Assembly: GCA_964405295.1 (NCBI GenBank) | Contig: CAYONI010000004.1 | Coordinates: forward strand, 20,698 to 84,697 | Direction of reading: 5' to 3' | Source: an uncultured Methanosarcinales archaeon | GTDB taxonomy: Archaea > Nanobdellota > Nanobdellia > Woesearchaeales > CAYZNE01 | DNA length: 64,000 bases | Shown here: one piece after another, positions 1 to 16,295 of the stretch | Numbering within the stretch: position 1 is the stretch's first letter | How the letters are laid out: the number at the start of each line of letters is the position of its first letter | Position numbers and translations under genes: made by a program | The notes under the pieces: model-generated | Databases searched by the model: none | What the model was told of the DNA's origin: nothing | Seen by the model: the letters and a program-made list of their open reading frames with translations, nothing else

Positions 1-1
1 A

Positions 2-631
2 AAAATTTCTTACCTAGATGATAGTTATGTTTTAGAAGATACTTCTTCAAATCCTACAAAAGAAATTTATGCATCATATCTTGATTCAACTTACTTTGGT
101 TGGGAAGAAAGTTCAGAGCCATATAATTTTAGTATAACTATCTTTGATAGAGCAATGAATTCAATGGTAATTAATAAAAGTATTTTTGTAGATGATACTC
201 CCCCAGAGATTAATATTACCCATTTTAAGTCTGGTGGTATTTCTTTCCCTACAGGACAAAACCCTGAGAATTTATTTAGTAATATTACAACAAGAAACAC
301 TACATTATTTATTAACGGAACTGTTGATGACTCACTTATTAGAGATATTTGTTTAAATATGACTTTTAATGGAATAACTATAGATTTAATCAGTCCTTGT
401 CAAGAGCTTTGTGAAGGTGAAGAGGTTCCTCCTGGTTGTATTCAGAACGGAACTGGCAATTTCCAGTTTAGTTTTGCATTAACTCTTGATTCAAATCAAG
501 TTAATGAAGAAGAATTGTGGAATATAATCACGATCATTGCAACTGATGAAGCTTTTAATCAAGAGGTTAAATCTTTAGCTGCATTGATGGATTGGTTATC
601 ACCTTCTGTTGTAGATGCTGATGTTATATAG
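2..631 (+). CDS. C-terminal part of a large secreted Ig-like-repeat surface protein; the 5' end lies outside the window
   Basis: The frame of the listed 155..631 ORF stays open back to nt 2 (KISYLDDSYVLEDTSSNPTKEIY...), so the ATG at 155 is internal. The sequence is rich in N-x-S/T. The FDRAMNS and TDEAFNQ strands resemble the D-x-A-G-N strand of Big/SbsA-type Ig domains, which also occurs in the next gene. Confidence 0.6.
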   Translation, partial: KISYLDDSYVLEDTSSNPTKEIYASYLDSTYFGWEESSEPYNFSITIFDRAMNSMVINKSIFVDDTPPEINITHFKSGGISFPTGQNPENLFSNITTRNTTLFINGTVDDSLIRDICLNMTFNGITIDLISPCQELCEGEEVPPGCIQNGTGNFQFSFALTLDSNQVNEEELWNIITIIATDEAFNQEVKSLAALMDWLSPSVVDADVI

Positions 632-660
632 GTAGAGATTTATAGAAGAGAAATTTAAAG

Positions 661-3600
661 ATGAGTTTTAGATCAGAAAAAAGAGGTTTAGGTATTTTAA
701 AGAGTGCAATTTTCTTAAAGGTTGCTATATTGTTTCTTTTAATATCTATTCTTAGTTTTAATGTTCTTTCAACTGAGTACTATACTACTAGTGCAGCACC
801 AGTAATTAGTATACTTTTTGATGAACAAATAAATCTTGATTCAATAACTGCGCAGGTTCTTTGCTTAGAGAAACAGGGGATTTGCTTTGATATTTACCAA
901 TCAGGAAATGTTACACAAACTCCTCAGATAGATGTGGCGCTTGAGAATAATAATCTAACCGTTCTTTATTCTCTTGGTCTTATTCCGAATGATAATTATA
1001 CTTTCCATACAACTGTTGAAGACGTAGTTGGTAATTCTCAATCATACGATCTTAGTTTCACAGTTGATGCGCCTTTAATGGATATCTCTGTTGTTTTACC
1101 TAATAATGCTTGGTCAAATGAAATACCTTTTGATGTAGCAATTTCTCCTGAATATAATAATTCTAACTGTTGGTATTTCCCAGGAAATATTCAACGGCCT
1201 CTAACCCCTGATGAAGGTTATACTTTCAATTTCACAAATATTGTTGATGGTGCTCGGTGGTTTTATATTTATGATATAACAAACAATACTGTTACAGATA
1301 CTTATCAAGTAGGGCAAAGCTTGCCTTTTTATGTCGCATGTAATGCAGGTGATGAAAACTATGGTTGGGCAGATTTAACTGTTTATTGGGATACAACTGC
1401 ACCAATTTATTCACTTGAATTTGATCCAAGCCCTTTAACTGATCTTGTTAATCGTATTGTTGATGTAACTGTTACATCTTCTCCTTATGGAAATGGAGAA
1501 AGTGCTGATGAGATTGGTTGTGAAATTGCAATTCTAATTGATAATGGAGCTAATATAACTTCTCCTGTATTTATTCCTTTTGATAGTGTTGGTGGTGATA
1601 TTTCTAAGATTGGTAACTATTCTCAAATTAACACACATGAACTTAATTTTGAAAATATTCCTATAACTGATTTTACTTCACATAGTTATCAATATAAAAT
1701 ACGTTGTAGAAATAAAGCAGGAACATTAGGGGATAATATTACTGAGGATTTAACTGTTCAACTTTCACCAGATTTTTCAATAACCCAAATCAGTCCTGAT
1801 AACTATGTTAATTCTGCAACAATTCCTGTTGAAGTTTTAACAAGTGTTGAAACAATTTGGTGTAATATTTCAAAAGATGGCTTCAATGAGTTAATGTTAA
1901 TAAACACTTCAACTAATAAAAATCATTATTATTATTTATCAAGTGTTTCTGAGGGGTCACATAGTTATGATATAGATTGTAAATCAACTTTTGGTTCTAA
2001 TGATCACTCAAGCATCTCATTCACTGTGGATAGAGTCTCGCCTGATAATGTATCTATAAATACTAATGATTATAGTTGTTCTCTGGCAGAGTTAAGTTTT
2101 AAGTTACATGCAGATGATGATCTATCAGGTGTATCTTATTTCAATTATACTATTACTGGTCCAGAATCAGAATTGATTGCTTCAGATTTGACAAGTGATA
2201 CAACAATAGAATATGATTACACACTTATAGAAAATGAGTCCTATATAATTAAGGTTGTCGCTGTAGATCGAGCTGGAAATCCAAGTTCAAGTGTGACAAA
2301 AACAATTGTTGCAACTGGGCCGGATCTTGTTGAATGTGACACAGTTTCTCCGACAATCAATTTCATTGATGAAAAAGAGCCTGGTGTGACAGTTGTTAAT
2401 ATAACTTGTTCAGATTCTCAGTCTGGATGTAGAGATAGTTTTGATTATAGTCTATTAAATAATCTTAGTGCAGATTGTACTTACTTAACTGCAGGAAGCT
2501 GGTCTACAACAACACAATTTTCTATATGGGAAGATACTAAGTTCTGTATAAGAGCTAAAGATTATAATGATAATGAAAGAGAAGATGATGAAATAATTAC
2601 GGTTACATTTAATGTTTCTACTCATTGTTCAAACGGGTTAATTGATTTTGATGAGTCAGATATAGATTGTGGGGGTACTGAATGTTTTGCTTGTGATGCT
2701 GGATCTGCTTGTTCAAGTGACGATGACTGTAGCACTAATTGGTGTAATAATGGTGTTTGTGATACTCCCGCTTGTGATGATACTATTTTAAATGGTCTTG
2801 AAACTGATGTTGATTGTGGTGGAAATTGTGATGGATGCGAAATTAATAAGACCTGTGTGTTAAATGATGATTGTTTAAGTTTTTGGTGTAATGAATCTGT
2901 TTGTGCAGCATCTTCTTGTGAAGATTATGTTGTCAATGGTCTTGAAACTGATGTTGATTGTGGTGGTCTTGAGTGTATGCCTTGTGATAATGGCCAGAAT
3001 TGTTTTGAAGATTTTGATTGTGTTTCTAATTATTGTAATTATGGTATTTGTGAAGAAATGATTCCTATTAATCCTATTGATGATGAAAAATTAAACATTA
3101 TCTCATTAATTCTTTTAATTTTGGGGATATTATTTATTCTTGTAGGTGTAGGTTATATTTTATATGAGCATTACTATCTTAAACCTAAAGAAACAACTAT
3201 TAGTACTGAAACGCATTTTGCACGTCCAGTTAAACATAAACTTTCTCCTGAAGAAATAAAAAGATTACATAAGAAAAGATTAATGATGAAAGAAAAGTTT
3301 AAGAAAAGGTCAAGTTCTATGAAAGATAAGTTTTCAACAAAGTTATCTACTTTTGATGAAGAAACTAAAGAAATAAAATCTGATAAAGATAAAGAGGAAT
3401 CAGAAAAAGCTAAGAAAGTTATGGAAAAGATTAGTAAGTTGTCTGATAAAGAAGTTACTCCTAAAGACAAGGAGTATGAAAAATTAGATAAAGGCTTAGA
3501 AGAAGATTATGTTGCGTTAGGAGATCTTAAAAAGAATGTTGTTGATAAACTTAAAGATGATCCTAAGTTTAATGATAAAGTTGCAGAGGATGTGTTTGCT

Positions 3601-4107
3601 GCACTTGATAAAATGCAATTAGGTGTTGATAAAAAAACCAAGATAAAAGATGATTATAAAGAACGTGAAAATTCTGACAAAAATTATGTTACTGAAGAAG
3701 ATTTTAAGAAGTTAGATGAAGTTATAAAAAAATCTAAAGAAGAAAAAGGTAAATCTGGAAAAATAATTGAGTCTAACAAGAAAGAACAACTTGTCTCTGT
3801 TCAGGATAAAGAAGATGTGTTTTCTGCTCTTGATGATCTTGCCTCAGGGTCTAAAGCTAAAAATAAGTCAGAGAAGGTTGATTTTTCTGCAAGAAAATTA
3901 TTTAATTCTGATGACTTAGTTAATTTATTTAAGAAAAAAGAGTTAAGTGCAGACGTTTTTAAAGTTATACTTTCTGAGTTATTAAATTCAGGCAAATTAA
4001 CAAAGGCTGATGTTTCTGGAATAGTATTTAGATTATTAGAACAAGATCTTCTTGAAAAAGATATTGCACATAAAATTTTAAAAGATTTAAAGTTAATAAA
4101 AGAATAA
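661..4107 (+). CDS. Giant type I membrane surface protein: Ig-like repeats, three Cys-rich modules, one TM helix and a long charged cytoplasmic tail
   Basis: 1148-aa ORF. The N-terminus is a basic stretch plus a hydrophobic helix (EKRGLGILKSAIFLKVAILFLLISILSF). About 640 aa follow that are beta-rich and sequon-rich, with recurring D-x-x-G-N strands (VEDVVGNSQ, AVDRAGNPS). Three Cys-rich modules lie at 2626-3051 and a TM helix (LNIISLILLILGILFILVGVGYILY) at about 3094-3165. The last ~310 aa form a K/E/D-rich tail. Confidence 0.85.
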   Translation: MSFRSEKRGLGILKSAIFLKVAILFLLISILSFNVLSTEYYTTSAAPVISILFDEQINLDSITAQVLCLEKQGICFDIYQSGNVTQTPQIDVALENNNLTVLYSLGLIPNDNYTFHTTVEDVVGNSQSYDLSFTVDAPLMDISVVLPNNAWSNEIPFDVAISPEYNNSNCWYFPGNIQRPLTPDEGYTFNFTNIVDGARWFYIYDITNNTVTDTYQVGQSLPFYVACNAGDENYGWADLTVYWDTTAPIYSLEFDPSPLTDLVNRIVDVTVTSSPYGNGESADEIGCEIAILIDNGANITSPVFIPFDSVGGDISKIGNYSQINTHELNFENIPITDFTSHSYQYKIRCRNKAGTLGDNITEDLTVQLSPDFSITQISPDNYVNSATIPVEVLTSVETIWCNISKDGFNELMLINTSTNKNHYYYLSSVSEGSHSYDIDCKSTFGSNDHSSISFTVDRVSPDNVSINTNDYSCSLAELSFKLHADDDLSGVSYFNYTITGPESELIASDLTSDTTIEYDYTLIENESYIIKVVAVDRAGNPSSSVTKTIVATGPDLVECDTVSPTINFIDEKEPGVTVVNITCSDSQSGCRDSFDYSLLNNLSADCTYLTAGSWSTTTQFSIWEDTKFCIRAKDYNDNEREDDEIITVTFNVSTHCSNGLIDFDESDIDCGGTECFACDAGSACSSDDDCSTNWCNNGVCDTPACDDTILNGLETDVDCGGNCDGCEINKTCVLNDDCLSFWCNESVCAASSCEDYVVNGLETDVDCGGLECMPCDNGQNCFEDFDCVSNYCNYGICEEMIPINPIDDEKLNIISLILLILGILFILVGVGYILYEHYYLKPKETTISTETHFARPVKHKLSPEEIKRLHKKRLMMKEKFKKRSSSMKDKFSTKLSTFDEETKEIKSDKDKEESEKAKKVMEKISKLSDKEVTPKDKEYEKLDKGLEEDYVALGDLKKNVVDKLKDDPKFNDKVAEDVFAALDKMQLGVDKKTKIKDDYKERENSDKNYVTEEDFKKLDEVIKKSKEEKGKSGKIIESNKKEQLVSVQDKEDVFSALDDLASGSKAKNKSEKVDFSARKLFNSDDLVNLFKKKELSADVFKVILSELLNSGKLTKADVSGIVFRLLEQDLLEKDIAHKILKDLKLIKE
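2626..3051 (+). repeat. Three tandem ~48-aa cysteine-rich modules (consensus C-x5-NG-x-ETDVDCGG-x2-C-x2-C-x5-C-x5-C-x4-C-x4-C) inside the 1148-aa gene
   Basis: The modules start at 2626, 2773 and 2917. An exact 32-nt repeat aatggtcttgaaactgatgttgattgtggtgg occurs at 2791-2822 and 2935-2966, a 144-nt period. Confidence 0.9.
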
Positions 4108-4108
4108 A

Positions 4109-4624
4109 ATGAATCGTAAAGCTGCAGTAAAACAAGTATTCACATTTTTAATGGTCGCAATATTAATAGGTTTAGTGTTTTTATTCGGTATAAAAGCTAT
4201 TGCAGGAATCATGAAAGATACTTGTGATGCAGATGTTGCTCTTTTCACAAAGCAAATTAATGAATTTGTTAATAAATATAATACTTATGGTTCAGATAGA
4301 GAAGAAAGAGTTATTCTTCCATGTGAACATTCTTTTGTGTGTTTTATTGATAAGGATATTATTGGTACACCAACAACGATTTTTCCAAATCCTGATATAG
4401 TAATTAATCCTATGATTGAACAGAGTATTCTTGCTAATGTTAGTTATAATATTTTTCTAATAAAAAATAATATCGCAACTCCTATTGGTTATTCAGATAA
4501 GTTAGTAGTAGGTGAGCCTTATAATTATCTTTGTATGCAACCAACAGGTAATAAGGTTGTAATAAGATTTGTTGGTAAGGGAAGAACAACAGAAGTAAAT
4601 TTGCCTCAATTAGGAGTGGTTTAA
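4109..4624 (+). CDS. Small helix-anchored protein, possible type IV pilin-like subunit (family not recognised)
   Basis: 171 aa. It starts 1 nt after the stop of the 1148-aa gene. The N-terminus MNRKAAVKQVFTFLMVAILIGLVFLFGI is a basic stretch followed by one hydrophobic helix. The globular part contains Cys. Confidence 0.45.
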   Translation: MNRKAAVKQVFTFLMVAILIGLVFLFGIKAIAGIMKDTCDADVALFTKQINEFVNKYNTYGSDREERVILPCEHSFVCFIDKDIIGTPTTIFPNPDIVINPMIEQSILANVSYNIFLIKNNIATPIGYSDKLVVGEPYNYLCMQPTGNKVVIRFVGKGRTTEVNLPQLGVV

Positions 4625-5641
4625 TTGTTTTTTCAAAAAAGAGCATTTACTATACAATTTAGTTGGATATTTATTTTAATAGTGGGATTTATGGTAATGC
4701 TTTTTGTTATAACTTCTATAAGTAAGCAGGGAGAGGTTTCAACATCAGATGTTAATGTTGAGATTCTACAAAATGTTGATTCAATTATTAGTACTTCTTG
4801 GCAAAGTGTTAACACTTTTAAAATTGTAAACACACCTAAAATAACTATTGAGTATATATGTGAAGATAATTATTCTGCCTATTCTGTTAATTCTAAGTTG
4901 CGTAGAGTAGATGATCTCATAATTTTTGCACCAAAACAAATTGACGGAAAAAAGATTTTTACATGGTCAAAAGAATATAAGATGCCAATGAAAATTGTTA
5001 ATGTTCTTTACTTAACTAATGAAAAACACAAATATATTTTTGTTAATTCTTCCACTAATAATGTAATGAGATTTTTATCTTCTAATTTTCCAGAAAATAT
5101 GACTTTTGAAACAGTTAATCCAGGATTTGATTTAGAAGATGGAAATTTTGATATGTATACAATTATTTCTACAGACGAAGATTATAATGGTGCTGGTGTT
5201 CCTGCATCTATCAGGAAAAAAACAAAAGTGGTGATAATAAATACTTCATCAGGAAATTATCAGAATGGTAATGTAAGTTTTTATTCTTTTAACAATGAAG
5301 GGCTTTTGGAGTTTGACGGAGAAGGTGTTTATCTTGATGAATCAACACTTTATGGTGCGATTTTTAGTAGTGGAATTTCTGATTATGAATGTACTATAGA
5401 TAAGTTAATGAGAAAGTCAAAGAATTTATATCAAATTTATCATAATGTTGCTGAAAAAGAACGAGATGCTTCTTCAAAAGCAATATGTATTTCAGCTTAT
5501 TATCCTGCGGTCATTGATATGCTAGTATACCTTAATGACTCAATTGATGCAAGGAATTATGAAGAGATTGTAATGGCAGGTTACAGTTTGGATGGTTCAA
5601 ATAAAAATCTAAGGAAATATGGGTGCCCTTTAATTTATTAA
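4625..5641 (+). CDS. Helix-anchored protein, possible pilin-like subunit (family not recognised)
   Basis: 338 aa. A TTG start lies directly after the TAA of the previous gene, with AGGAGTG about 7 nt upstream. The N-terminus is FFQKRAFTIQFSWIFILIVGFMVMLFVI. Confidence 0.45.
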   Translation: MFFQKRAFTIQFSWIFILIVGFMVMLFVITSISKQGEVSTSDVNVEILQNVDSIISTSWQSVNTFKIVNTPKITIEYICEDNYSAYSVNSKLRRVDDLIIFAPKQIDGKKIFTWSKEYKMPMKIVNVLYLTNEKHKYIFVNSSTNNVMRFLSSNFPENMTFETVNPGFDLEDGNFDMYTIISTDEDYNGAGVPASIRKKTKVVIINTSSGNYQNGNVSFYSFNNEGLLEFDGEGVYLDESTLYGAIFSSGISDYECTIDKLMRKSKNLYQIYHNVAEKERDASSKAICISAYYPAVIDMLVYLNDSIDARNYEEIVMAGYSLDGSNKNLRKYGCPLIY

Positions 5642-5642
5642 A

Positions 5643-6155
5643 ATGATTTCAATAAAAAGGTTTAGAAGGAAAGCGCAATTGCAAATGACTGAAAACATTG
5701 CAATAATTATGATAATTGTATTTATTCTAATATTTGGTTTTGTGTTTTATAGTAAGGTTCGTTCTGCATCTATTAAGGGTAAACTAAAAGAGTATTCTGA
5801 ACTTGATTTAGTTAAAGCTTCACAAACAATTTCCTCTTTGCCTGAGTTATCTTGTTCTCGAGAATCTTTAACAGATGTTGGCTGTATAAATAAGTTGAAG
5901 CTAGAAGCATTCATAGAGTTGGGTTTACAAGAGGAATATTATGAATATTACCGAGAGTTATTTGGTAAATCTAAAGTAACATTTAATTCAACGTTCCCTG
6001 ATGATACAATTAATATTGAATTATACAATAACCCTTTTGATGGTATTAATAATAAAGATTCAATTTTTATTCCTATAAATATTTTTGATCCAATAAATGA
6101 TACTGTTAATTTTGGTTATGTTCAAATAACTAAGTATACACAACCTTTAATTTAA
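5643..6155 (+). CDS. Small helix-anchored protein, possible pilin-like subunit (family not recognised)
   Basis: 170 aa, with a 1-nt gap to the previous gene. The N-terminus MISIKRFRRKAQLQMTENIAIIMIIVFILIFGFVFY has K-A-Q followed by an acidic residue and a hydrophobic helix. Confidence 0.45.
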   Translation: MISIKRFRRKAQLQMTENIAIIMIIVFILIFGFVFYSKVRSASIKGKLKEYSELDLVKASQTISSLPELSCSRESLTDVGCINKLKLEAFIELGLQEEYYEYYRELFGKSKVTFNSTFPDDTINIELYNNPFDGINNKDSIFIPINIFDPINDTVNFGYVQITKYTQPLI

Positions 6156-6156
6156 A

Positions 6157-6672
6157 ATGGCAGATAAAAAAAAATCTAAGTTTGGGCAAGTAGAAATAAT
6201 GGGTTTATTAATAGTTGTAATATTAGTTGTTGTGGTAATTTTTTTAGTTGTTAGTTTTAGTGCTAAAACTCCTCCAAGAAATATTCAAACAACATATATG
6301 AATGATCAAATGTCAACTGCATTTATTCTTGCTTTGCTTGATACGAGCACTGAGTGCGGTAATTCTGTAAGTATATCTGAAGTTATAGCTGATTGTGCTG
6401 CGTTTGACAGAATAAAGTGTCCTGGTGGTAATTCTTGCACTTATTTAAACGAATCCTTAGATGATATGTTTAACTCAACCCTAGTAGAGTGGGGTGTAGG
6501 ATTTGTATTTACCATGCATCATATATCCTTTGATAATCCTGGGCTAAATAATTTTACTTTTTCTCAGGGTTGTGGTTATGGATCGATTGCTCAGAGAGAA
6601 ACTTTTCAGATTATTCCTTTATGGCCTAGACCTGATGATGTTAAAGTTAGAATAAAGATCTGTGATAGTTAG
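6157..6672 (+). CDS. Small helix-anchored protein, possible pilin-like subunit (family not recognised)
   Basis: 171 aa, with a 1-nt gap to the previous gene. The N-terminus MADKKKSKFGQVEIMGLLIVVILVVVVIFLVV has K-x-G-Q-x-E followed by a hydrophobic helix. The globular part contains Cys. Confidence 0.45.
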   Translation: MADKKKSKFGQVEIMGLLIVVILVVVVIFLVVSFSAKTPPRNIQTTYMNDQMSTAFILALLDTSTECGNSVSISEVIADCAAFDRIKCPGGNSCTYLNESLDDMFNSTLVEWGVGFVFTMHHISFDNPGLNNFTFSQGCGYGSIAQRETFQIIPLWPRPDDVKVRIKICDS

Positions 6673-7947
6673 TTAATTACACTTCTCCCAAATATTATAT
6701 TGGTGTTTCTTGAAATACTCTGGAAGGTTTATAATATATATAATCATGATTACAAACCAGAATGGTGCCATAAATAATAATGGAATTAAGTGCCACATGG
6801 TGAATTTCTTCTCATACTTGATTATTGCAATTAAGAATAAAGGATAAGTGAGTAGTGTAACAATTATGCTTATTGCAACAAGAAAACTTAGTTCTATATT
6901 GCCATTAATTATGTTTGTAATCCATCTTATTACTCCTGCTATGGAGAACCATTCAATAAAATATCTTAACACTTCTCCACTAAAAATAACCCCCTTAGAA
7001 GAAAAATATAGTATGTATCCAGAGGTTATGTTATAGATTGTAACAATGCCCATGATTACTCCTTGGATATATGTAAAAAGCATTAATGGGAGAGAATAAA
7101 TATCTATCATCGTATTCCCTATCTGCATATGTTTCTTAAAAATATTAAGCCATCCTTTTGCAAATCTTGTTCTTTGTTTTCCAAATCCTTTAACTGTATA
7201 TGGCATATTTGTTTCTGTTACACTCTTTTCACTAAACGCGATTTTGTAGCCTTTTCTTATTAGTCTAATTGTTACATCAACATCTTCTGAAAACCCTTTT
7301 GTGCTAAAGCCATTAATCTTTTCAAGAGCCTTCCTTTTATACATGCTAAGTGGCCCTGGTGTAACAATATTTGCGTGTATCTTGCTGAAAAGCATTCTAA
7401 TAAGTGAATTATATAGTTGTTCAATGTGGACCCATAGGCTTATGAACTTCTTTTTGTTTTTTAATTTAATAACTCCACATGCACCTGCATATTCTTTTGG
7501 AGATAGTACTTTTGCAAGCTCCACAAGAGAATCTTTCGCGATTATACTATCTGCATCTACAATAGCAATTAATTCACTTTGTGTATATTTTAATGCAGTG
7601 TTTATCGCATTTGATTTGCCGCCATGGTTTAATTTAATTAATTTTACAGATACATTACTTGGTTTTCCTTTGATTGCTTTTTTTATTTCTAATATTGTTT
7701 TATCTTTGCTTCCATCATCAATAACGATTATATCTTTCTTGCCGTTGAAATCTGCATTAATAGCTGCAATCAAACAATCTTTAATATATGGTTCTTCATT
7801 GTACGCAGGTATTATTATTGTAAGAGATTTGCCTGTTTTGCCAGGCTTTTTTTTCTTAGGTTTAATAAAAACAAGAACATAGTAAGATAAAACTACAAGA
7901 AAAAAGATTACTGTTATTATGTTTGCAAGTATTGCTAAAATACTCAT
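6673..7947 (-). CDS. Membrane-integrated family 2 glycosyltransferase, processive synthase type (PgaC/IcaA/NodC-like)
   Basis: Motifs seen are IIIPAYNEE, VIDDGSKD, GGKSNAIN, IVDADS, SEDVDVT and QRTRFAKGW (a Q-x-x-R-W variant), with TM helices on both sides. ATG 7947 lies 1 nt after the upstream stop. The ORF track starts at TTG 7956. Confidence 0.8.
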   Translation of the reverse strand: MSILAILANIITVIFFLVVLSYYVLVFIKPKKKKPGKTGKSLTIIIPAYNEEPYIKDCLIAAINADFNGKKDIIVIDDGSKDKTILEIKKAIKGKPSNVSVKLIKLNHGGKSNAINTALKYTQSELIAIVDADSIIAKDSLVELAKVLSPKEYAGACGVIKLKNKKKFISLWVHIEQLYNSLIRMLFSKIHANIVTPGPLSMYKRKALEKINGFSTKGFSEDVDVTIRLIRKGYKIAFSEKSVTETNMPYTVKGFGKQRTRFAKGWLNIFKKHMQIGNTMIDIYSLPLMLFTYIQGVIMGIVTIYNITSGYILYFSSKGVIFSGEVLRYFIEWFSIAGVIRWITNIINGNIELSFLVAISIIVTLLTYPLFLIAIIKYEKKFTMWHLIPLLFMAPFWFVIMIIYIINLPEYFKKHQYNIWEKCN

Positions 7948-7948
7948 T

Positions 7949-9205
7949 TTATACAAAGTCCGTGTTCTTTATTTTAGGTGTACAGAACCAAGATAGTTTT
8001 TGATTAAACAATGCTTTGAATGCAGCATATGCGATAGCAAAAACAAGAACTATGCTAACAGTGAAACATCCTCTTACAAGGTACCAGTATTCGTTTAGCA
8101 TATGTCTTTTATACATCATAAATCCTCCCATTAAAAGGAACCCAAATGTGTAGAAGAACCTCAAGAAGAATGTTGCCACGTCTGACATATTAAATAAACT
8201 TGGCTCTCCAACAAACCACCCTACAAAGCCAAAAATGGTCATGGTTATAACCACTGGTGCAATTAAATGAACCATTGTTTGAAACATTATCATTGCCTGT
8301 TGTTTCCAATTAAGTTTACCAGAAAATAATATGTCCTGATAGTTATCTAGAAAAACTCTCATTCCACCATAGGTCCATCTCATCTGTTGTTTAATATAAG
8401 ATTCCCATGTATCTGGAACTTCACTTGGTTGATCTAACCCTTTAACATAAACACTTTTATAACCTTTCATTAGAATTCTAACGCTAAGTTCAGAATCTTC
8501 TGTTATACTATTAGGGTTCCATCCGCCTACTTCTTCAATACATTTTTTTCTTATAGCCCCTCCTGTTCCACAGAAGAATACTGTATTTATTTTATTACTA
8601 ATGGGCATGATAATTGTGTGAAATATTGTCAACGAATATGCTGCAAATCTTGTAATTATATTTGTATCTTTGTTTGAAAAGCCTTGGCCTCCTTGAACAA
8701 TTGCAATTTTTGGATCAGCAAATGGAGGAATAACTTTTTTTAGAAAGTGTGCTTCGGGTTCCCAGTCTGAGTCAAAGATGCAAATTATTTCTCCTTTTGT
8801 TTGGTCCATTGCATCTTTGCAAGCACCTGGCTTATACCCTTGCCTATTTGTTCTGTGTATATATTTAACAAATCCAGGATTATCATCTGCATACTTTTTT
8901 AGAAGTGCTTGTGTGTTTGTATTTGTGCTATCATCAAGAATCATTACTTCAAATCTATCTTTTGGATAGTCTAGTTTCATACAGCCTTCAATACATCTTG
9001 CTGCAATAGGATCATTAAACGAAGGAACCTGGACACTTACAAAAGGCCACTCTTTAAACTTGTATGTTTTAGAATCAACAAAGTTTTTCTTTTTGTCAAC
9101 AAAAATATTTATTATTGACATAGTAAGAAATACCAATGACAGAAAGATCATTGGAATTAGTGCAATGTTGTATATGAACATTGTAATTGCTTGAGCAGTA
9201 GCCAT
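7949..9205 (-). CDS. Membrane-integrated family 2 glycosyltransferase, processive beta-glycan synthase type (cellulose-synthase/CslA-like)
   Basis: Motifs seen are VQVPSFND, ILDDSTN, IFDSDW, TEDSELS and QQMRWTYGG (Q-x-x-R-W), with N- and C-terminal TM helices. Confidence 0.8.
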   Translation of the reverse strand: MATAQAITMFIYNIALIPMIFLSLVFLTMSIINIFVDKKKNFVDSKTYKFKEWPFVSVQVPSFNDPIAARCIEGCMKLDYPKDRFEVMILDDSTNTNTQALLKKYADDNPGFVKYIHRTNRQGYKPGACKDAMDQTKGEIICIFDSDWEPEAHFLKKVIPPFADPKIAIVQGGQGFSNKDTNIITRFAAYSLTIFHTIIMPISNKINTVFFCGTGGAIRKKCIEEVGGWNPNSITEDSELSVRILMKGYKSVYVKGLDQPSEVPDTWESYIKQQMRWTYGGMRVFLDNYQDILFSGKLNWKQQAMIMFQTMVHLIAPVVITMTIFGFVGWFVGEPSLFNMSDVATFFLRFFYTFGFLLMGGFMMYKRHMLNEYWYLVRGCFTVSIVLVFAIAYAAFKALFNQKLSWFCTPKIKNTDFV

Positions 9206-9210
9206 TCTTT

Positions 9211-9936
9211 TTAATCACCTATTATTAATTGCTTTTGTCTGATAGCTTTTCTTAGTTTGGTTATACTTGGAACTCCAACCAACATATCATAGTCTCTTTC
9301 ACTAACACCTATATATATTACTGGATTAATTCCCTGTATTTTAAACTTTTGTGCTTCTGAGATGTCTTCTTTTAGTTCTTCGAAGATTTCTGTTTCCATA
9401 CAGTTTAGAATTTCTTGGCCATCCAGGTTATTCAAATCAATATTTTCTTGAACTTTCATATTAAATGAATTAAAATAATAATTCCAATATTGATCTGGAT
9501 AGAGTTTATTTACACATAATAATGCTTGTGCAAATTTGTAGTGGTCTTCTTTTTCTTGATAATCAATTATATCTATATTGTTCTTATGATAAAATTTAAT
9601 TTTCCCTGTGTCAATATATTCTTCTTTTATTATTGGGAATATTTCGTTAATAAATTCTCTTGATTTGTCTCCAGAACTATCTGCAAAAACAATCATTGTT
9701 ATCTGTGCGTTTTCATCACCAAAATACGGCCTGTTAGTTAATAATGGTTCATTTGAAGTATAGAACTCATATAGATAGCTAATATTATTTCCATTTAATT
9801 TATCATTAAGAATAGGGTATTTATTTTTTTCAATTGTTATACTTCTATAAAAGCTAAATGCCAATATTAAAACAAGAATAACTAATATTGTTATTGTTTT
9901 CCCATGTAGTCTTCTTTTATTGTCTTTCTTAGTCAT
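9211..9936 (-). CDS. Membrane-anchored DsbA-like thioredoxin-fold protein lacking the CxxC active site
   Basis: It has an N-terminal anchor. FGDENAQITMIVFADSSGDKSREF aligns to the DsbA/Thioredoxin_4 pattern G-x-x-A-x-V-x-I-x-E-F-x-D-x-x-C-P-x-C, but SGDKS replaces C-P-x-C. The C-terminal GINPVIYIG matches the cis-Pro loop region. Confidence 0.55.
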   Translation of the reverse strand: MTKKDNKRRLHGKTITILVILVLILAFSFYRSITIEKNKYPILNDKLNGNNISYLYEFYTSNEPLLTNRPYFGDENAQITMIVFADSSGDKSREFINEIFPIIKEEYIDTGKIKFYHKNNIDIIDYQEKEDHYKFAQALLCVNKLYPDQYWNYYFNSFNMKVQENIDLNNLDGQEILNCMETEIFEELKEDISEAQKFKIQGINPVIYIGVSERDYDMLVGVPSITKLRKAIRQKQLIIGD

Positions 9937-9941
9937 CTTTC

Positions 9942-10391
9942 TTATTCTCTTTGCATAATAGTATTTTTTATGCTTTTTGCTTTGTGGCTATTATAAGATT
10001 TAAGTCCTTTAACAAATAAGAAGATACACCAAATTAATAATGCAGCTATTGGTAATGGTAACCACCCAAATAGTAAGAATGGCATTATTGAATAAAACAT
10101 AAGTCTAAATAAATCCAAGTATTTTATTTTTCTGACAAATATTTTTAAGATTAAACTTAGAAAGAAGAAACCAAATGTTCCTGCAAAGATATAAAAGAAA
10201 GCCATGCCTGTTGCAGTACCAAAAGAATAATTTATCATTCTCCAAAAATTTACATTTGCAATATCAAATATAGTGTAGTATGCATATCTTATAATATCAA
10301 TTAATAGAATAACGATTCCTGTTAATATACTTAGCTTAACTAGTAATCTAAGGTAAATATCTAAAACAATTTCAAATTGTTTTTTCCACAA
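9942..10391 (-). CDS. Small polytopic membrane protein, function unknown
   Basis: 149 aa from TTG 10391, with about 4 hydrophobic helices. The frame stays open upstream to about 10493 without ATG, GTG or TTG, so the true N-terminus is uncertain. Confidence 0.5.
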   Translation of the reverse strand: MWKKQFEIVLDIYLRLLVKLSILTGIVILLIDIIRYAYYTIFDIANVNFWRMINYSFGTATGMAFFYIFAGTFGFFFLSLILKIFVRKIKYLDLFRLMFYSIMPFLLFGWLPLPIAALLIWCIFLFVKGLKSYNSHKAKSIKNTIMQRE

Positions 10392-10577
10392 GCCTTCAAA
10401 AGCTTTATCAGGATTGTATAATACTTCTAAACCGGATTTCAGGTCGCTTATTGTATTTGTTTTCTTTTTGATTTTGATTACCTCGTTGGAAAGTTAATTT
10501 CCCGTATGTAGGAGTTGATATAAGTAGTAATTATTTTATAAATATTGTGGTAAAATTTGATCTTTTAATCTTTAGTC

Positions 10578-11294
10578 TTAATTCACTTTAAGAATAAGCT
10601 TCAGATCTTTTGAGGTAAGGACTCTATCTTGGATTAATCTGTTATCTACAACGGTTGCAGGGTAAGAATCTATTTCATAGTATTGTTTTAATAGGAATAC
10701 GGTGTCTTCTTTAAAATCTGCATCAATAGGGAAAATTATTACGGTTTTGTTTTCTTCAGACATTTCTTGATTAAATCTGTCAAATTCTTCTCCTTGTTCT
10801 AGGCAGTTTTCGCAATCTTTTGTGTAAAAGTATAATATTGGTATAAAATCATGATTATTACACTCATTGTAATTCTTTGTTGATATAAGCCAGAATCTTA
10901 AAGATAATCTGATATACTCTCTTTTTAAGCTAATATATTCATCTGAAAGTTTTGTTTTTTTGTCATATTCTTCAAGTCTTGTTGGTAGAATATCCCAGTA
11001 GAATTTTAGTTGTGGGTATAGTTGAGTTATCTGTAAATCTAGAAATTTGCACTGATCTTTTGCTTGAAAGTTGTCCATAAATAATTGCTGTAGTTGAACT
11101 CCCTTAAGGTCGAGTGCAGAATTATCTATAGTATTTCTTATTTCAGAGATTTCTGAGTTTACTGTTTTCTCTATAAGATTGTTAGCAAAGATGCCACTAA
11201 AAACTCCTGCTAAATATAGAACAAAAGATACTATGACAATAAATATTATTAAACCTCTTTTTGGTACTTTTTTGATTCTTCGTTTTTTATTCAT
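10578..11294 (-). CDS. Membrane-anchored thioredoxin-like protein with a CxxC motif
   Basis: It has an N-terminal anchor (KRGLIIFIVIVSFVLYLAGVF) and a coiled-coil-like linker. ILYFYTKDCENCLEQGEEF is a beta-strand followed by C-E-N-C, typical of a thioredoxin fold. YPATVV matches the cis-Pro region. Confidence 0.55.
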   Translation of the reverse strand: MNKKRRIKKVPKRGLIIFIVIVSFVLYLAGVFSGIFANNLIEKTVNSEISEIRNTIDNSALDLKGVQLQQLFMDNFQAKDQCKFLDLQITQLYPQLKFYWDILPTRLEEYDKKTKLSDEYISLKREYIRLSLRFWLISTKNYNECNNHDFIPILYFYTKDCENCLEQGEEFDRFNQEMSEENKTVIIFPIDADFKEDTVFLLKQYYEIDSYPATVVDNRLIQDRVLTSKDLKLILKVN

Positions 11295-11321
11295 TTTTTA
11301 ATAAATGATTAAAAATTTGGT

Positions 11322-12509
11322 TTATTCATCATCTATGCTTATTTCTTCAATGTCATCTAGAGAAGGTATTTCTTCTTTTGGAGTCTTCGAATCCAATAAA
11401 TCTTTAGATTTATTCAACTTTGTTGAATGATCAACAATATTTTCGTTATTGTGTTTATTGAGAGTTTCAACTTTTATTTCTTTAGGGGAGTCTTGTTTCG
11501 GTGTCTCAGGAAGATTTTTTATTTCTTCTTCTGGAGAAGGATTCTTAACAATCTCCATTGCAACAAGCTCAACTCTGTCAAAAGCTTCATTTTTGTTAAC
11601 TCTACCAGTTACTTTTATCATTTCACCTAATAAGGATGATTTAAATGGTTCAAATAAATCTGGTGCTTCTCTAAATTTTAGAATATTTTCATGTGTTTCT
11701 CCAAGTAGTTTCTGTATTTGATCTCTCCAAAAAACAGTTCTTACGCTTGCAGATCCATCATCTAAATAGCAATTTAATACATATGAATATCCTAATTTAT
11801 TTGCAGGAATTTCTCCGTGCTCTGCGCAAATATATTTGTCGTTTTCAAATTTAGGTTTTTTATTACACTCAGGACAAGTTTCCCAGAATCTAATGTCTGA
11901 AACTTGCACAATTGTTGCAAGAACATCAACTCTGAAATCATTTGCTCCTAGCTCGCTAATCTTCTTTTTTGTTGAAGTTTCTTCACTAACTTCAATTGTT
12001 ATTCCTTCAGGGTTTACTATGATTTCAGTATTGTCCCCAAGGTTTAAGTCAAGAGCGCCAGTATAGTTATTCTTTCTAACATAGGCGTTCTTTATTGTAA
12101 TTATGTCTCCCTGTTTTATTTTTCCAAAGAATTCATCAACTTTAGTGTTCCAAAGCGTTGCTCTCATTCTTCCTGTTTTATCTGCAATAAGAAAACTGGC
12201 TAGCTTACCAGGTCCTCTTGCTGAATTAAATTCTTTTATATCAAATTTTCTTAGAACTTTAGCATTTAGTTCAACATTTCTCAATCCTTCAAGAAGATTG
12301 CCTATTTCCAAAGCTTGCTCTGTTGAAGGTATTAATTGCACACCAAGTTCATTTGCAACAATGTGTGCAGCTCCATCTTCACTTACTAATCCTGAAAGTT
12401 GATCTAGTTTGTGTTTTATTTTATTATTAATATCATCTAATGATAGAGAAGTAGATTCTATAATTTTCTTAACTATCTGTTCTTTCGTAAGTACGACCAT
12501 GTGTTTCAA
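11322..12509 (-). CDS. rpa: Replication protein A-type ssDNA-binding protein (OB folds plus zinc ribbon)
   Basis: The N-terminal helical region ends in AAHIVANELGV. OB-fold segments are present (ASFLIADKTGRMRATLWN). The zinc ribbon reads CPECNKK...CAEHG. An acidic C-terminal tail ends in DDIEEISIDDE. Confidence 0.75.
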   Translation of the reverse strand: MKHMVVLTKEQIVKKIIESTSLSLDDINNKIKHKLDQLSGLVSEDGAAHIVANELGVQLIPSTEQALEIGNLLEGLRNVELNAKVLRKFDIKEFNSARGPGKLASFLIADKTGRMRATLWNTKVDEFFGKIKQGDIITIKNAYVRKNNYTGALDLNLGDNTEIIVNPEGITIEVSEETSTKKKISELGANDFRVDVLATIVQVSDIRFWETCPECNKKPKFENDKYICAEHGEIPANKLGYSYVLNCYLDDGSASVRTVFWRDQIQKLLGETHENILKFREAPDLFEPFKSSLLGEMIKVTGRVNKNEAFDRVELVAMEIVKNPSPEEEIKNLPETPKQDSPKEIKVETLNKHNNENIVDHSTKLNKSKDLLDSKTPKEEIPSLDDIEEISIDDE

Positions 12510-12645
12510 ACCCCCTCAAATAATCAAATAAGTAAGTACTATATAAATATTAGTATTTATCTCTTACTAGAATAATCTAGGACAATTTCCTCTTTTTAAA
12601 AAGATTGTTGTTGGTTGTCTTGTGTTTGCTCACTAAACAATAATA

Positions 12646-12655
12646 TTTATAAATA
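12646..12655 (+). promoter_or_regulatory. TATA box (tttataaata) for rpl21e-rpoF
   Basis: It matches the window-wide consensus and lies about 22 nt upstream of ATG 12677. Confidence 0.55.
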
Positions 12656-12670
12656 CCCTAAAATTCACTT

Positions 12671-12973
12671 GTGATTATGGTAAAGCGAGTTGGCGGATCA
12701 CGAAGGAAAACAAGACATAAGCTTAAGAAGAATGTTAGAACTAAAGGAAAAATTAGTTTAACTAGATTCTTTCAAACTTTTAAGAAGGGCGACAAGGTTG
12801 TTTTGAATGCAGAACCTGCATATCAGAAAGCAATGTATTACCCAAGGTTTCATGGGCTTGTTGGTTCTGTATCAAGAAAGATTGGCACATGTTACGAAGT
12901 TAGTATTAAAGATAACAATAAAGCAAAAATGGTTATTGTTCACCCTGTTCATTTGAAGAAGTCGAAGGTTTAA
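12671..12973 (+). CDS. rpl21e: 50S ribosomal protein L21e
   Basis: MVKRVGGSRRKTRHKLKKNVRTKGKISLTRFFQTFKKGDKV is a typical L21e N-terminus. ATG 12677 is the more likely start than GTG 12671. Confidence 0.9.
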   Translation: MIMVKRVGGSRRKTRHKLKKNVRTKGKISLTRFFQTFKKGDKVVLNAEPAYQKAMYYPRFHGLVGSVSRKIGTCYEVSIKDNNKAKMVIVHPVHLKKSKV

Positions 12974-12978
12974 ATAAA

Positions 12979-13335
12979 ATGGAGCCAGAAATTATTGAAT
13001 TAAATCCTGTTTCTTTAGCAGAAGTTAAAAAAGATTTAAAAAAAATTAAAAAAAGAGATGGTGAACTTACTTTTAGAGGAAATAAAACAGAAGAGCACAT
13101 TAATAGTCTTCATGTAATTTCTGAAAAAGATTCTAAAGATATCTATGATAAAATTGATAAATTAAAGATTCTAAGAATGAAGCCTAAGCATGTCATTAAA
13201 TTCGTAGATATAATGCCTTCTTCAGAAGCAGAAGTAAAATATCTTGTAGGTTCCCTGTCATTAACAGTTTCTAAGGAGAACATTACAAAAATTAACAAGA
13301 TAATCTCTGCACACATTCCTGCAAAGAAGAAATAG
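12979..13335 (+). CDS. rpoF: DNA-directed RNA polymerase subunit F (Rpo4)
   Basis: 118 aa, located directly after rpl21e, which is the conserved archaeal gene order. It is helical and K/E-rich, with an Rpb4-like N-terminal pattern. Confidence 0.6.
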   Translation: MEPEIIELNPVSLAEVKKDLKKIKKRDGELTFRGNKTEEHINSLHVISEKDSKDIYDKIDKLKILRMKPKHVIKFVDIMPSSEAEVKYLVGSLSLTVSKENITKINKIISAHIPAKKK

Positions 13336-13356
13336 TTTTTCTTAATTTTCTTAAAC

Positions 13357-13366
13357 TTTATAAATA
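13357..13366 (+). promoter_or_regulatory. TATA box (tttataaata) upstream of gap
   Basis: It lies 36 nt upstream of GTG 13402, with the SD-like sequence AGAGGTG at 13390-13396. Confidence 0.5.
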
Positions 13367-13401
13367 CTAATTGTAAATATATCCTATAAAGAGGTGTTTA
13401 A

Positions 13402-14409
<1,008 letters not shown>

Positions 14410-14449
14410 TTTACAACAGGTTTATATATTGGAGTATATTCTGTTTTTT

Positions 14450-15112
14450 ATGTCTGATATTATAAGTGAATTTAAAGAATCTTATAATAATTTAAGAGCT
14501 AATGTTTCTCCTGAAGAACTAGTACATGATGATATTGATAATCTTGAAGAACTTTGTGTTAAGTCAAAGCCAGCTATTGTAAGGTCAGATTCTGATTATT
14601 TTATCATAGGTTATTCTAATCAAAATAAAGTTGTCAATAAAATAAAGAAGTTATGGAATCATCCTATTACAAAGTTCAATAGATCTATGATTCCTGCAGA
14701 AATAGCTTCGGTTGTTGGTGCAGCAAAGGGGAGTTCTTTAGTAAGTTTGGTAACTAATTCATCTTCTTTAATTACAGTTGGTGCTGCAATCACAGAGGGG
14801 TTATCTTATTTCGGAATCTATAGAATCTTATCTTATTTTAATAATGAGAATAAATATAAAGGGCATAAAAAGAAATTTTGGAAAGACTTTGGCACTTTTA
14901 GTAAAGATTCTGTTATGTTGTGGACACTTAGCATGGCAAAGAATATTATTCTGTATAAATTATTAAAAGAAGGTTATGATCCCGCACAAACAACTGCGTT
15001 TGTTCAGGCAGGTTATAGTTTGTTGCATTTAGCCTCAATGAATGCATTAGCCTATAAACAAGGTTTAATTGATAAGAATAATAATGTTAAAAAAGTGTCT
15101 AATTTCACCTAA
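14450..15112 (+). CDS. Hypothetical protein with C-terminal hydrophobic segments
   Basis: ATG 14450 (MSDIISEF) lies about 22 nt downstream of gtttatatatt. The track start at 14393 overlaps the end of gap. Confidence 0.5.
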   Translation: MSDIISEFKESYNNLRANVSPEELVHDDIDNLEELCVKSKPAIVRSDSDYFIIGYSNQNKVVNKIKKLWNHPITKFNRSMIPAEIASVVGAAKGSSLVSLVTNSSSLITVGAAITEGLSYFGIYRILSYFNNENKYKGHKKKFWKDFGTFSKDSVMLWTLSMAKNIILYKLLKEGYDPAQTTAFVQAGYSLLHLASMNALAYKQGLIDKNNNVKKVSNFT

Positions 15113-15192
15113 ACATTTAAAAATAATGAGTGATATTACTAACAATATCTAGAGGTTAGCCTAGAAAATTTAGTAAGGAGTAAAAAAACAAA

Positions 15193-15495
15193 ATGAAAGG
15201 AACAGTTAAATGGTACAACTTTAAGAAAGGTTACGGATTCATCAGTGGTGAAGACGGAAAAGATTATTTTGTGCACTATACTATGGTGTCTAAAGATCTA
15301 ATGTTAAAAGACGATGATAGTGTTACTTTTGATGCTGTTGAAACAGATAAAGGAATTCAAGCACAGAACATTGCAATAGTGGGCTCTGCACCTGCAGAAG
15401 CATCTGCAACAACTAAAGCTCCGGCTGAAAAATCTGTTAAAGAACAAGTGGCACCTGTTAAGGAAGATACTAAAGAAGATAGTGAAGATTTTTAA
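15193..15495 (+). CDS. csp: Cold-shock domain protein with an A/E/K-rich C-terminal tail
   Basis: MKGTVKWYNFKKGYGFISGEDGKDYFVHYT contains the RNP1 (KGYGFI) and RNP2 (VFVH-like) motifs. AAGGAG lies upstream. Confidence 0.85.
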   Translation: MKGTVKWYNFKKGYGFISGEDGKDYFVHYTMVSKDLMLKDDDSVTFDAVETDKGIQAQNIAIVGSAPAEASATTKAPAEKSVKEQVAPVKEDTKEDSEDF

Positions 15496-15569
15496 GACTA
15501 TTTTCTAAATAATAAACTTATTATTTTTTCTATTTTATTTTTTCTATCTAAAAAGAAAAAAATTCTAAA

Positions 15570-16163
15570 TTATTTTTTAGTAGCAGTTCTATTTGCAACA
15601 ACAACTTTAAACTTATTTGAGATGTCGTTAAGTTGTTTAACATTATTTACAAAGACTGGAAGAACATTACTGAAAACCTTTTCCATAGCTCTAACTTCTG
15701 CGCCAACATTTAGAATATTTTTATCATATTCACCGACTTTCCCAATTATTGCTTTGTGCAGTTCGTCAAATTGATCTTTCATGTCTTTGACTTGTTGTTC
15801 AATTTGTGTAACTTTTTGTTCTGTTCTGTTTTTCCAAGTTATTATTTTATTAATATCTTTGATAAGATCAGTCCATTTTTCTTCAATAATTGTTTCTATA
15901 AGTTCTTCATTGGTTGCACTTACCATTCCAGGATCAACATCCATTGATGATTGCATAGGATTCATATTAGGGATTGGTGGTAAGATGTTTTGTGAATTGT
16001 TTGGTATCATGTTTTTTCCTCCTAGTTTTGCCTGCGACATTGCATCAAATATATCCGTATGAGAGTGGCCTTTCTTCACTAAAACGTCAGAAATCTGATT
16101 TTCAGATAGTCCTTGCTGTTTTAAAACGTGTACTTGATTGACCATTTCTTTAATGTTAGTCAT
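15570..16163 (-). CDS. Hypothetical coiled-coil protein with an N-terminal UBA-like helical motif
   Basis: 197 aa. The N-terminus reads LKQQGLSENQISDVLVKKGHSHTDIFDAMSQA, followed by a P/N/M-rich linker and heptad-like sequence. A TATA-like gtttaaaaat (minus-strand sense) lies about 24 nt upstream. Confidence 0.55.
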   Translation of the reverse strand: MTNIKEMVNQVHVLKQQGLSENQISDVLVKKGHSHTDIFDAMSQAKLGGKNMIPNNSQNILPPIPNMNPMQSSMDVDPGMVSATNEELIETIIEEKWTDLIKDINKIITWKNRTEQKVTQIEQQVKDMKDQFDELHKAIIGKVGEYDKNILNVGAEVRAMEKVFSNVLPVFVNNVKQLNDISNKFKVVVANRTATKK

Positions 16164-16241
16164 ATTAAATGATATTTATGTTAGTAGTTTAAAAATATTA
16201 TTGATTATTTTGTTGAATATTCATAAAAACAAACAACAAGC

Positions 16242-16251
16242 TTTATAAATA
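16242..16251 (+). promoter_or_regulatory. TATA box (tttataaata) upstream of rpl11
   Basis: It matches the consensus and lies 45 nt upstream of ATG 16296. AGAGGT is at 16283-16288. Confidence 0.5.
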
Positions 16252-16295
16252 TATATTAAGCCCCATAGGATACTGATAATCATAGAGGTTAAAAT

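Follow-up and report, generated by a model that had tools for sequence, protein, structure and literature searches.

Little is known about the way in which ultrasmall DPANN archaea of the uncultured freshwater and sediment lineages attach to their partners. For Methanococcus, several minor pilins plus an adhesin have been described (PMC4858521), and the Epd locus of Methanococcus maripaludis comprises the minor pilins EpdA-C, the major pilin MMP1685, and the peptidase EppA (PMC4858521, PMC3875500). The loci of Thermoproteales clades 4E/4G (Makarova, Koonin and Albers 2016) encode a large S-layer-like protein with a C-terminal transmembrane (TM) segment, a large adhesin with a signal peptide, and diverse small minor pilins, with conserved Cys residues in almost all of them (PMC4858521). 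Large adhesin-like proteins occur in several types of archaeal type IV filament systems (10.64898/2026.04.22.720090), and DPANN pilins are often unrecognizable by sequence and have been inferred from signal peptides and genomic context (Makarova, Wolf and Koonin 2019, PMC6393860). Here, we analyzed a 64,000-nucleotide (nt) stretch of contig CAYONI010000004.1 (termed the window herein), which begins with a block of six genes for two giant proteins, G1 and G2, and four small proteins, S1 to S4. We consider it moderately probable that these genes form the operon for the structural subunits of a pilus-like surface apparatus, a type IV filament, whose uncultured archaeal host probably belongs to the DPANN class Nanoarchaeia. 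This reading is based on a signal-peptide signature of the small proteins, the conserved gene order, the presence of an ATPase in the window, a helix-plus-sheet model of S3, and the following gene structure (window coordinates; a slash within a sequence marks the predicted cleavage site):

2..631, plus strand: 3′ part of the G1 gene, encoding the C-terminal 209 amino acids; the open frame is cut by the window start
661..4107, plus strand: G2, 1,148 amino acids, type I membrane protein, S-layer-like or adhesin-like
4109..4624, plus strand: S1, 171 amino acids, pilin-like; predicted class III leader MNRKA/AVKQVFTFL; 4 invariant Cys residues
4625..5641, plus strand: S2, 338 amino acids, pilin-like, TTG start; predicted leader MFFQKRA/FTIQFSWIF; 4 invariant Cys residues
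5643..6155, plus strand: S3, 170 amino acids, pilin-like; predicted leader ...RRKA/QLQMTENIAII; 2 invariant Cys residues
6157..6672, plus strand: S4, 171 amino acids, pilin-like; predicted leader ...KSKFG/QVEIMGLLI; 6 Cys residues

The first-pass annotation of this DNA had reported a plus-strand run of six genes from nt 2 to 6672 with successive gaps of 29, 1, 0, 1, and 1 nt. These open reading frames (ORFs), their coordinates, and the gaps were confirmed, as was the common layout it had described for the small proteins, each of which has a single N-terminal hydrophobic segment (within residues 5 to 42) and 2 to 6 Cys residues. The TTG start of S2 is preceded by AGGAGTG and is supported by the conservation of the N-terminus encoded from it in orthologues that start with ATG. 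The six genes may be transcribed together. At the downstream border, the end of S4 meets the end of a convergent glycosyltransferase gene. A few mechanical antisense ORFs of ≥60 amino acids cross the block; they are not conserved genes. A promoter and terminator scan gave sigma-70-type matches at chance level, and the sigma-70 model is not applicable to archaea. The window has a G+C content of ∼30% and encodes archaeal proteins (thermosome, Nre, RPA, Rpb4, L21e, and RtcB). Neither this G+C content nor the gene content resembles that of Methanosarcinales, and a DPANN (Nanoarchaeia) origin appears likely.

Comparison with described systems

Much as is predicted for the block, the Epd locus encodes several different small class III signal-peptide proteins together, all for one pilus, with leaders ending in K-G/A, and it includes an adhesin-like protein (bioRxiv 10.64898/2026.04.22.720090). 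The block differs in that its proteins have no Pfam or NCBIfam pilin match, that a candidate ATPase and platform lie outside the operon, and that no dedicated peptidase was seen; moreover, its pilin-like genes are coupled to a TM-anchored protein of 1,148 amino acids and to a protein of >2,000 amino acids. The Thermoproteales 4E/4G loci, judged by their description (PMC4858521), resemble the block in composition. However, they belong to another lineage, no homology to them was detected, they contain the ATPase, TadC, and extra membrane proteins, and a fixed order of four small genes has not been reported for them.

The bacterial FimU-PilVWX-PilY1, GspH-I-J-K, and ComGD-G sets are similar by analogy only: they, too, combine four nonidentical adjacent pilin-like subunits, one of them much larger than the others, with a large nonpilin partner. 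Bacterial minor-pilin complexes are expected to prime or tip filaments and to function in adhesion. Neither S1 to S4 nor G1, G2, or G0 (a further large protein encoded upstream of G1 in relatives, see below) matched the GspH/I/J/K, FimU/PilV/W/X, or PilY1 families in Pfam and NCBIfam. The block also differs from the bacterial sets by its archaeal host, by Q instead of E at position +5 of S2, and by a membrane-anchored G2 with a cytoplasmic tail.

Among DPANN proteins, the family cls.004306/NEQ255, a DPANN-wide secreted protein family encoded beside S-layer-like proteins (PMC6393860), would, by its description, fit one of S1 to S4. The DPANN "dark matter" islands (PMC6393860) contain an ATPase and TadC, whereas the block does not.

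The first-pass annotation had also likened the block to bindosome-type loci, a comparison that we dropped. The Sulfolobus bindosome resembles the block in having class III signal peptides on surface proteins and depends on a PilB/PilC-like pair, but its subunits are sugar-binding proteins working with ABC importers, and no substrate-binding domain was found in S1 to S4, G1, or G2 with Pfam and NCBIfam. ABC genes beside the module in the related contig L012 are of the ABC-2 exporter type and are absent from the other loci. The putative arCOG01314 secretion system, which comprises a MoxR ATPase, vWA proteins, and Ig-like S-layer proteins (PMC5898192), was rejected as well, since the MoxR/GvpN-type ATPase, vWA, and DUF4350 are absent from the scanned window genes and the related loci.

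A literature search of incomplete coverage found no description of this gene block. What appears to be distinct here is a fixed-order quartet of nonhomologous pilin-like families that is separate from the ATPase locus and tightly coupled to a TM-anchored giant protein with a cytoplasmic tail. As read here, the block is a type IV filament-type module made of unannotated families and not a categorically new system.

The small proteins share a class III signal-peptide signature

In all four families, across 11 loci, a leader of variable length ends with K or R followed by G, A, or S and is joined to a conserved mature end, commonly with Q, or else with a hydrophobic residue, at position +1. The orthologue consensus around the predicted site is ..KA/A(Q)I.QVFTF for S1, ..K[KR][AG]/F..QF[SN]W for S2, ..KA/QLQM.E for S3, and ..K[AG]/Q.EI.G for S4, and about 20 conserved hydrophobic residues follow it. 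S1 to S4 therefore show the short basic leader ending in G or A and the subsequent ∼20 hydrophobic residues by which type IV pilins are recognized. Szabo 2007 and Ng 2011 are said to have found Q at +1 in Methanococcus pilins. Among 62 diverse members of the S2 family, whose leaders measure 4 to 25 amino acids, K or R is present at −2 in 60/62, G, A, or S at −1 in 52/62, and Q at +5 in 56/62. The [KR][GA] signature of these sequences is that of a class III (prepilin) signal peptide; a plain signal anchor would give no reason for such conservation.

A scan of the 64-kb window for ORFs with this N-terminal pattern matched six, among them S1 to S3 as three adjacent ones; the other three were G2, a membrane protein of 238 amino acids, and a start lying inside another gene. 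The scan missed S4, whose leader ends with KFG/Q and has F instead of K or R before the G.

Behind the helix, the four proteins differ. Paralogy of their heads was considered and rejected: hhalign comparison of the four profiles aligned the leader and helix only, as for S3 and S4 (leader plus helix only, hhalign probability of 61%). N-termini that align and globular parts that are mutually unrelated, as these profiles suggest, are usual for sets of different pilins. The even numbers of invariant Cys residues indicate disulfide-bonded extracellular domains. S3 is the most conserved of the four small proteins.

An exhaustive search with a hidden Markov model (HMM) of the S2 profile retrieved 1,757 representative clusters (50% identity) at an E value of ≤1e-3 and 407 at ≤1e-30, with almost all matches being full length. 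The family is unannotated, and none of the 62 members scanned matched Pfam; one distant member is labelled Candidatus Nanoarchaeia archaeon. In public gene calls, the S2 relatives P0002, P0003, P0007, and P0009 begin at an internal Met and lose the leader and part of the helix, and automated annotation therefore hides the signal peptide of this family. A TTG or upstream start restores the conserved N-terminus in these relatives.

The S2 orthologue of contig L021 (10001..11320) contains three tandem copies of the leader and the start of the helix (RKKAQMS.QFNWINWLRSVGTQGGSRSAQA) ahead of its normal N-terminus; either the assembly is at fault here or the signal-peptide region has truly been duplicated.

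Structure models and homology searches

The AlphaFold2 (AF2) model of S3, calculated from a 15-sequence alignment, has a predicted local distance difference test (pLDDT) value of 79. It consists of a continuous helix from residue 3 to 64, which ends 53 residues past the predicted cleavage site A11/Q12, a loop holding both invariant Cys residues, and antiparallel strands at residues 110 to 118, 124 to 129, 137 to 149, and 154 to 166. The model thus contains the extended N-terminal helix of ∼53 residues and the antiparallel-sheet head expected of a pilin, and the topology predicted for S3 is the classical pilin layout. The AF2 model of S2 (pLDDT of 61) has an N-terminal helix, an alpha/beta domain, and a helical bundle. 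Of the structure predictions proposed in the first-pass annotation, that of the S3 monomer gave a pilin-like helix-plus-sheet protein, and that of the S2 monomer gave a weak model whose head is not typical of a pilin. Its suggestion that this is a minor-pilin-type locus gains support from the pilin-like topology modeled for S3 and from the class III signature that S1 to S4 all carry.

It had recognized no named family in S1 to S4, and Pfam and NCBIfam indeed gave no meaningful match at an E value of ≤1, so that the profile searches it had recommended left all four without an assigned family. Foldseek matches to the DnaK substrate-binding domain and to ribosomal proteins (TM-score of ≤0.3) were rejected as noise. 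Neither sequence nor fold similarity to a described pilin or archaellin was detectable in these searches, and assignment to the pilin superfamily therefore depends on the signal-peptide signature, the topology of S3, and the genomic context.

The gene order is conserved in unrelated surroundings

The order G2-S1-S2-S3-S4, usually with G1 upstream, is kept in 10 other loci and holds from 81% down to ∼25% identity. In most cases, neighboring genes of the block overlap or are <50 nt apart in the 11 loci. A word-index search with S2 yielded nine clusters, and in their contigs (L001/L003, L004, L005, L007, L009, and L011), genes for a large protein and for proteins of ∼1,100, ∼170, ∼340, ∼165, and ∼165 amino acids followed each other in every case. 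The closest relatives (L001, L004, L005, and L011) also keep the housekeeping flanks (RPA, L21e, Rpb4, and GAPDH); their shared order alone could therefore be plain collinearity.

More distant loci were found as well. The S3 relative P0027 (32% identity) is encoded in contig L012, where four small genes, orthologous at 26 to 30% identity, follow a giant-protein gene in unchanged order; the flanks there (ABC-2 transporter, DsbA/GILT-type protein, and HypC) are unrelated to those of the window. In L018, L019, and L021, which came from the exhaustive profile search, the block order is kept beside Mvh-type hydrogenase genes or other unrelated genes. HMMs of the close S1, S3, and S4 orthologues, searched against L012, L018, and L019 (L021 was left out), each matched the gene at the expected position; for S1, the E values were 4e-39 in L018, 1e-28 in L012, and 2e-11 in L019. 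The conservation of the six-gene order, which the first-pass annotation had asked to be checked, thus extends to 10 further loci, including those with unrelated flanks, and the linkage to giant surface-protein genes, whose loss in relatives would have spoken against its proposal, holds even where the flanks are wholly different. The families are unannotated, as its notion of a novel module in a reduced genome implied, but the module is not a rarity of a single genome (∼1,757 clusters), and its general kind has already been described for archaea.

Beside the module, L019 encodes HdrA/MvhD-like proteins and NiFe-hydrogenase subunits (6850..11376), and L012 encodes HypC and Fe-S/NAD-binding subunits (14055..18206); some carriers of the module therefore have hydrogen metabolism.

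Giant proteins G1 and G2 and the upstream protein G0

In every related locus, a G2 orthologue is encoded directly upstream of S1, often overlapping the S1 start. G2 has hydrophobic segments at residues 9 to 39 and 808 to 837, an ectodomain of ∼770 amino acids that matches Ig-like families weakly and contains three Cys-rich repeats of ∼45 amino acids, 20 N-x-S/T sequons, and a cytoplasmic tail of 318 amino acids that is rich in Lys, Glu, and Asp and conserved at its C-terminal end. Sec-type N-termini are also present on the G2 orthologues of L018 and L017, and the L012 giant protein shares with G2 its Cys repeats, TM helix, and charged tail. Archaeal S-layer-type proteins are characterized by a Sec signal, an ectodomain that is large and can be glycosylated, and one TM anchor near the C-terminus, all of which are found in G2; however, its 318-amino-acid cytoplasmic tail is atypical for such proteins. 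The first-pass annotation had treated G2 as a pure ectodomain, which does not agree with the TM helix at residues 808 to 837 and the 318-residue tail behind it.

Only the last 209 amino acids of G1 lie inside the window. The search with the N-terminal part of G1 led to full-length orthologues on JGI contigs:

L017, 9065..15949: full-length G1 orthologue
L016, 670..7584: full-length G1 orthologue

Full-length G1 has 2,294 to 2,304 amino acids in close relatives and 4,139 in L021, so that the earlier description of two giant proteins is correct for G1 by way of its relatives. The full-length orthologues have a Sec-type signal peptide, 94 to 99 Cys residues, and no C-terminal anchor. The G1 fragment of the window is 69 to 75% identical to the C-termini of the giant proteins of L005 and L011; a word-index homology search with this fragment gave no match. 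Both giant proteins had been called Ig-like. For G2, this is matched by sub-threshold Big_13/Big_5 hits in Pfam, but G1 had no Pfam match at an E value of ≤0.01 (one Big_13 match was at 0.013), and both proteins are better called Cys-rich. DUF4215-like CGDG...EQCD repeats are present in G1 and in the L012 giant protein.

In relatives, a further gene precedes G1, upstream of where the window starts:

L015, 822..4088, same strand as G1: G0
L017, 5808..8879, same strand as G1: G0

G0 (1,023 to 1,088 amino acids, 41 to 46 Cys residues, 45% identity between two lineages) is encoded ∼185 to 220 nt upstream of G1. Its sole hydrophobic segment is N-terminal and follows ...KNIKA/QMTVF or ...SRKS/QLTVF, which is class III-like. 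It has no Pfam match and, by its sequence, looks like a very large modular pilin. Since G0 lies upstream on the same strand and the genes further upstream in the relatives are on the opposite strand, the unit probably consists of seven genes, with G0 and most of G1 lying outside the window.

Candidate assembly machinery in the window

The first-pass annotation had noted that the operon contains no ATPase, platform protein, or prepilin peptidase. This is true of the operon, and no peptidase was found in the window either, but the window does encode, further downstream, an ATPase of the T2SSE family and a membrane protein whose hydrophobic segments number at least eight, so that the missing machinery is only partly missing:

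36458..38767, plus strand: T2SSE-family (PilB/FlaI-like) ATPase, 769 amino acids; Pfam T2SSE at 2.6e-15, above the curated cut-off
38788..41028, plus strand: polytopic membrane protein, 746 amino acids, with ≥8 hydrophobic segments; starts 20 nt after the ATPase gene

The ATPase has a long N-terminal extension, with its Walker A motif at residue 468, and is a candidate assembly motor for the pilin-like proteins. By its position and topology, the 746-amino-acid protein is a probable platform of the PilC/TadC/FlaJ type. The ATPase thus passes the Pfam cut-off, and the platform half of the machinery depends on a sub-threshold T2SSF match. No pilin gene is located beside this pair.

Weighing of the explanations

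Several results weigh against a type IV filament apparatus. The FlaFind pattern requires aliphatic residues at positions +2 to +4, and the polar residues at +3 to +6 (K, Q, and E) predicted for S1 to S4 would not fit it. The pattern scan of the window revealed no obvious gene for a major pilin. None of the Pfam and NCBIfam pilin models matched S1 to S4 at an E value of ≤1, searches of PDB sequences with the S2, S3, and S4 profiles and with the S3 N-terminus returned nothing, and Foldseek comparison of the S2 and S3 models with the PDB gave best E values of 0.03 to 0.14 and TM-scores of 0.2 to 0.3, with no pilins among the matches. The S2 model is poor for residues 28 to 132, and the helical bundle at its C-terminal end is unlike the usual head of a pilin. 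As for the machinery, the match of the 746-amino-acid protein to T2SSF is sub-threshold (E value of 0.41), even though it spans the whole profile, and the ATPase lies 30 kb from the block and is therefore linked to the operon only by co-residence in the window. A search of the window ORFs and membrane proteins for a class III signal peptidase, by regular expression and Pfam, found no GxGD-type motif and no Peptidase_A24 match.

The lack of pilin homology, by sequence or Foldseek, the lack of a peptidase in the window, and the distance of the ATPase would all be expected if S1 to S4 were uncleaved type II signal-anchor proteins that form, together with G2, a membrane complex for anchoring, assembling, or maturing the envelope (e.g., by docking an S-layer-like giant protein) with no type IV filament machinery involved. 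Such a complex would agree with the single N-terminal TM helix and the extracellular Cys-containing domain of each small protein, and with the resemblance of G2, which is translationally coupled to S1, to a C-terminally anchored S-layer-type protein. We nevertheless regard it as unlikely: [KR][GA] before the helix is conserved in four families and >60 divergent sequences despite varying leader length, and the continuous helix of 53 residues plus sheet modeled for S3 is pilin-like and unlike a short TM helix with a linker. S1 to S4 could instead be pilin-like and yet build no adhesive filament, if they formed a type II secretion-like pseudopilus that acts as a secretion piston and pushes G1 (and perhaps G0 too), once exported by Sec, through the envelope or onto it. 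The small pilin-like proteins number four, all distinct and one of double size, and in this they parallel the minor pseudopilins GspH-I-J-K as generally known from type II secretion systems (an analogy); in addition, the module is constantly linked to a giant protein that is secreted and anchorless, and a T2SSE-family ATPase is present. This piston is rather improbable, given that Pfam and NCBIfam detected no Gsp homology, that no major pseudopilin was identified, and that no single-membrane archaeon is known to need or to possess a type II secretion system. That the genes are functionally unconnected and adjacent merely through general genome collinearity among close relatives would agree with the housekeeping flanks conserved in L001, L004, L005, and L011. 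The module order is, however, intact in L012, L019, and L021, where the flanks (e.g., ABC transporter and Mvh-type hydrogenase) are wholly different and members of all four small families occupy their expected places, which refutes this explanation and leaves it hardly any probability.

Proposed mechanism and significance

For a type IV filament apparatus, we propose the following course of events. G1 would be exported by Sec as a secreted protein and G2 as a membrane-anchored one, and S1 to S4 (and G0 in relatives) would be inserted as prepilins. A class III signal peptidase, presumably encoded elsewhere in the genome, would then trim the leader after [KR][GA], and the PilB-like ATPase and the platform at 36.4 to 41.0 kb would pull the N-terminal helices out of the membrane. 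The helices could pack together into a complex of four pilins, which would be a short pseudopilus or else serve as the tip or primer of a filament; the stop/start coupling of the genes suggests that its subunits are present at a ratio of roughly 1:1:1:1. This complex may carry or position the giant proteins, or may itself be anchored by them, in attachment to surfaces or host cells. G2 may tether the complex to the membrane and, via its conserved tail, to cytoplasmic partners, and G0 would add, in relatives, a fifth, Cys-rich pilin of the class III type with ∼1,000 amino acids and an adhesive head. DsbA-like proteins and glycosyltransferases encoded next to the block may oxidize and glycosylate the exported parts.

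More tentatively, it is possible that the block plus G0 represents a conserved, unnamed attachment organelle of much of the Nanoarchaeia (Woesearchaeales/Pacearchaeales-type DPANN) and corresponds, in archaea, to the tip complex that minor pilins and PilY1 form in bacteria. In such an organelle, a nonhomologous pilin quartet would form a short filament that presents Cys-rich adhesins of several thousand residues to the host and is wired to the cytoplasm via the G2 tail. The module provides a concrete and widely conserved candidate set, in which four ordered pilin-like subunits are joined by two or three giant surface proteins rich in Cys. What makes it interesting is how widely it occurs among uncultured archaea and that it supplies these testable candidates for an attachment apparatus. 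In addition, annotation pipelines gain a handle on four families of "hypothetical proteins."

Neighboring genes and additional observations

The genes downstream of the block point toward it:

6673..9205, minus strand: two family-2 glycosyltransferases (Pfam), converging on S4
9211..9936, minus strand: membrane-anchored thioredoxin-fold (DsbA-like) protein; Pfam Thioredoxin_4 at 9e-10
10578..11294, minus strand: second membrane protein, with weak thioredoxin-fold matches, converging on the operon

A gene for a Yip1 protein is also among those converging on the operon. Glycosyltransferase neighbors are likewise present in L001, L004, L011, and L009, and the family-2 enzymes may glycosylate surface proteins. 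The DsbA-like protein is a candidate oxidase for the many extracellular Cys residues of the module. Thioredoxin-fold neighbors recur beside the module in relatives, which suggests a dedicated extracellular disulfide-forming step and fits the heavy Cys content of the exported proteins. In L012, a DSBA/GILT-type thioredoxin-fold protein is encoded near the module (12080..13984) despite otherwise unrelated flanks.

Elsewhere in the window, just past the ATPase locus, a minus-strand gene (42994..47259) encodes a secreted protein of 1,421 amino acids that combines right-handed beta-helix/NosD repeats with a Cys-rich DUF4215 repeat and is another candidate adhesin. A plus-strand gene at 18629..19672 combines an SLT lytic transglycosylase domain with LysM, here in an archaeal gene; the peptidoglycan-cleaving and -binding nature of these domains hints that the encoded protein interacts with bacterial cell walls. 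At 30553..31188, also on the plus strand, this archaeon encodes a secreted protein with a CAP (cysteine-rich secretory protein) domain. Lytic transglycosylase-LysM and CAP-domain genes are commonly reported in DPANN genomes.

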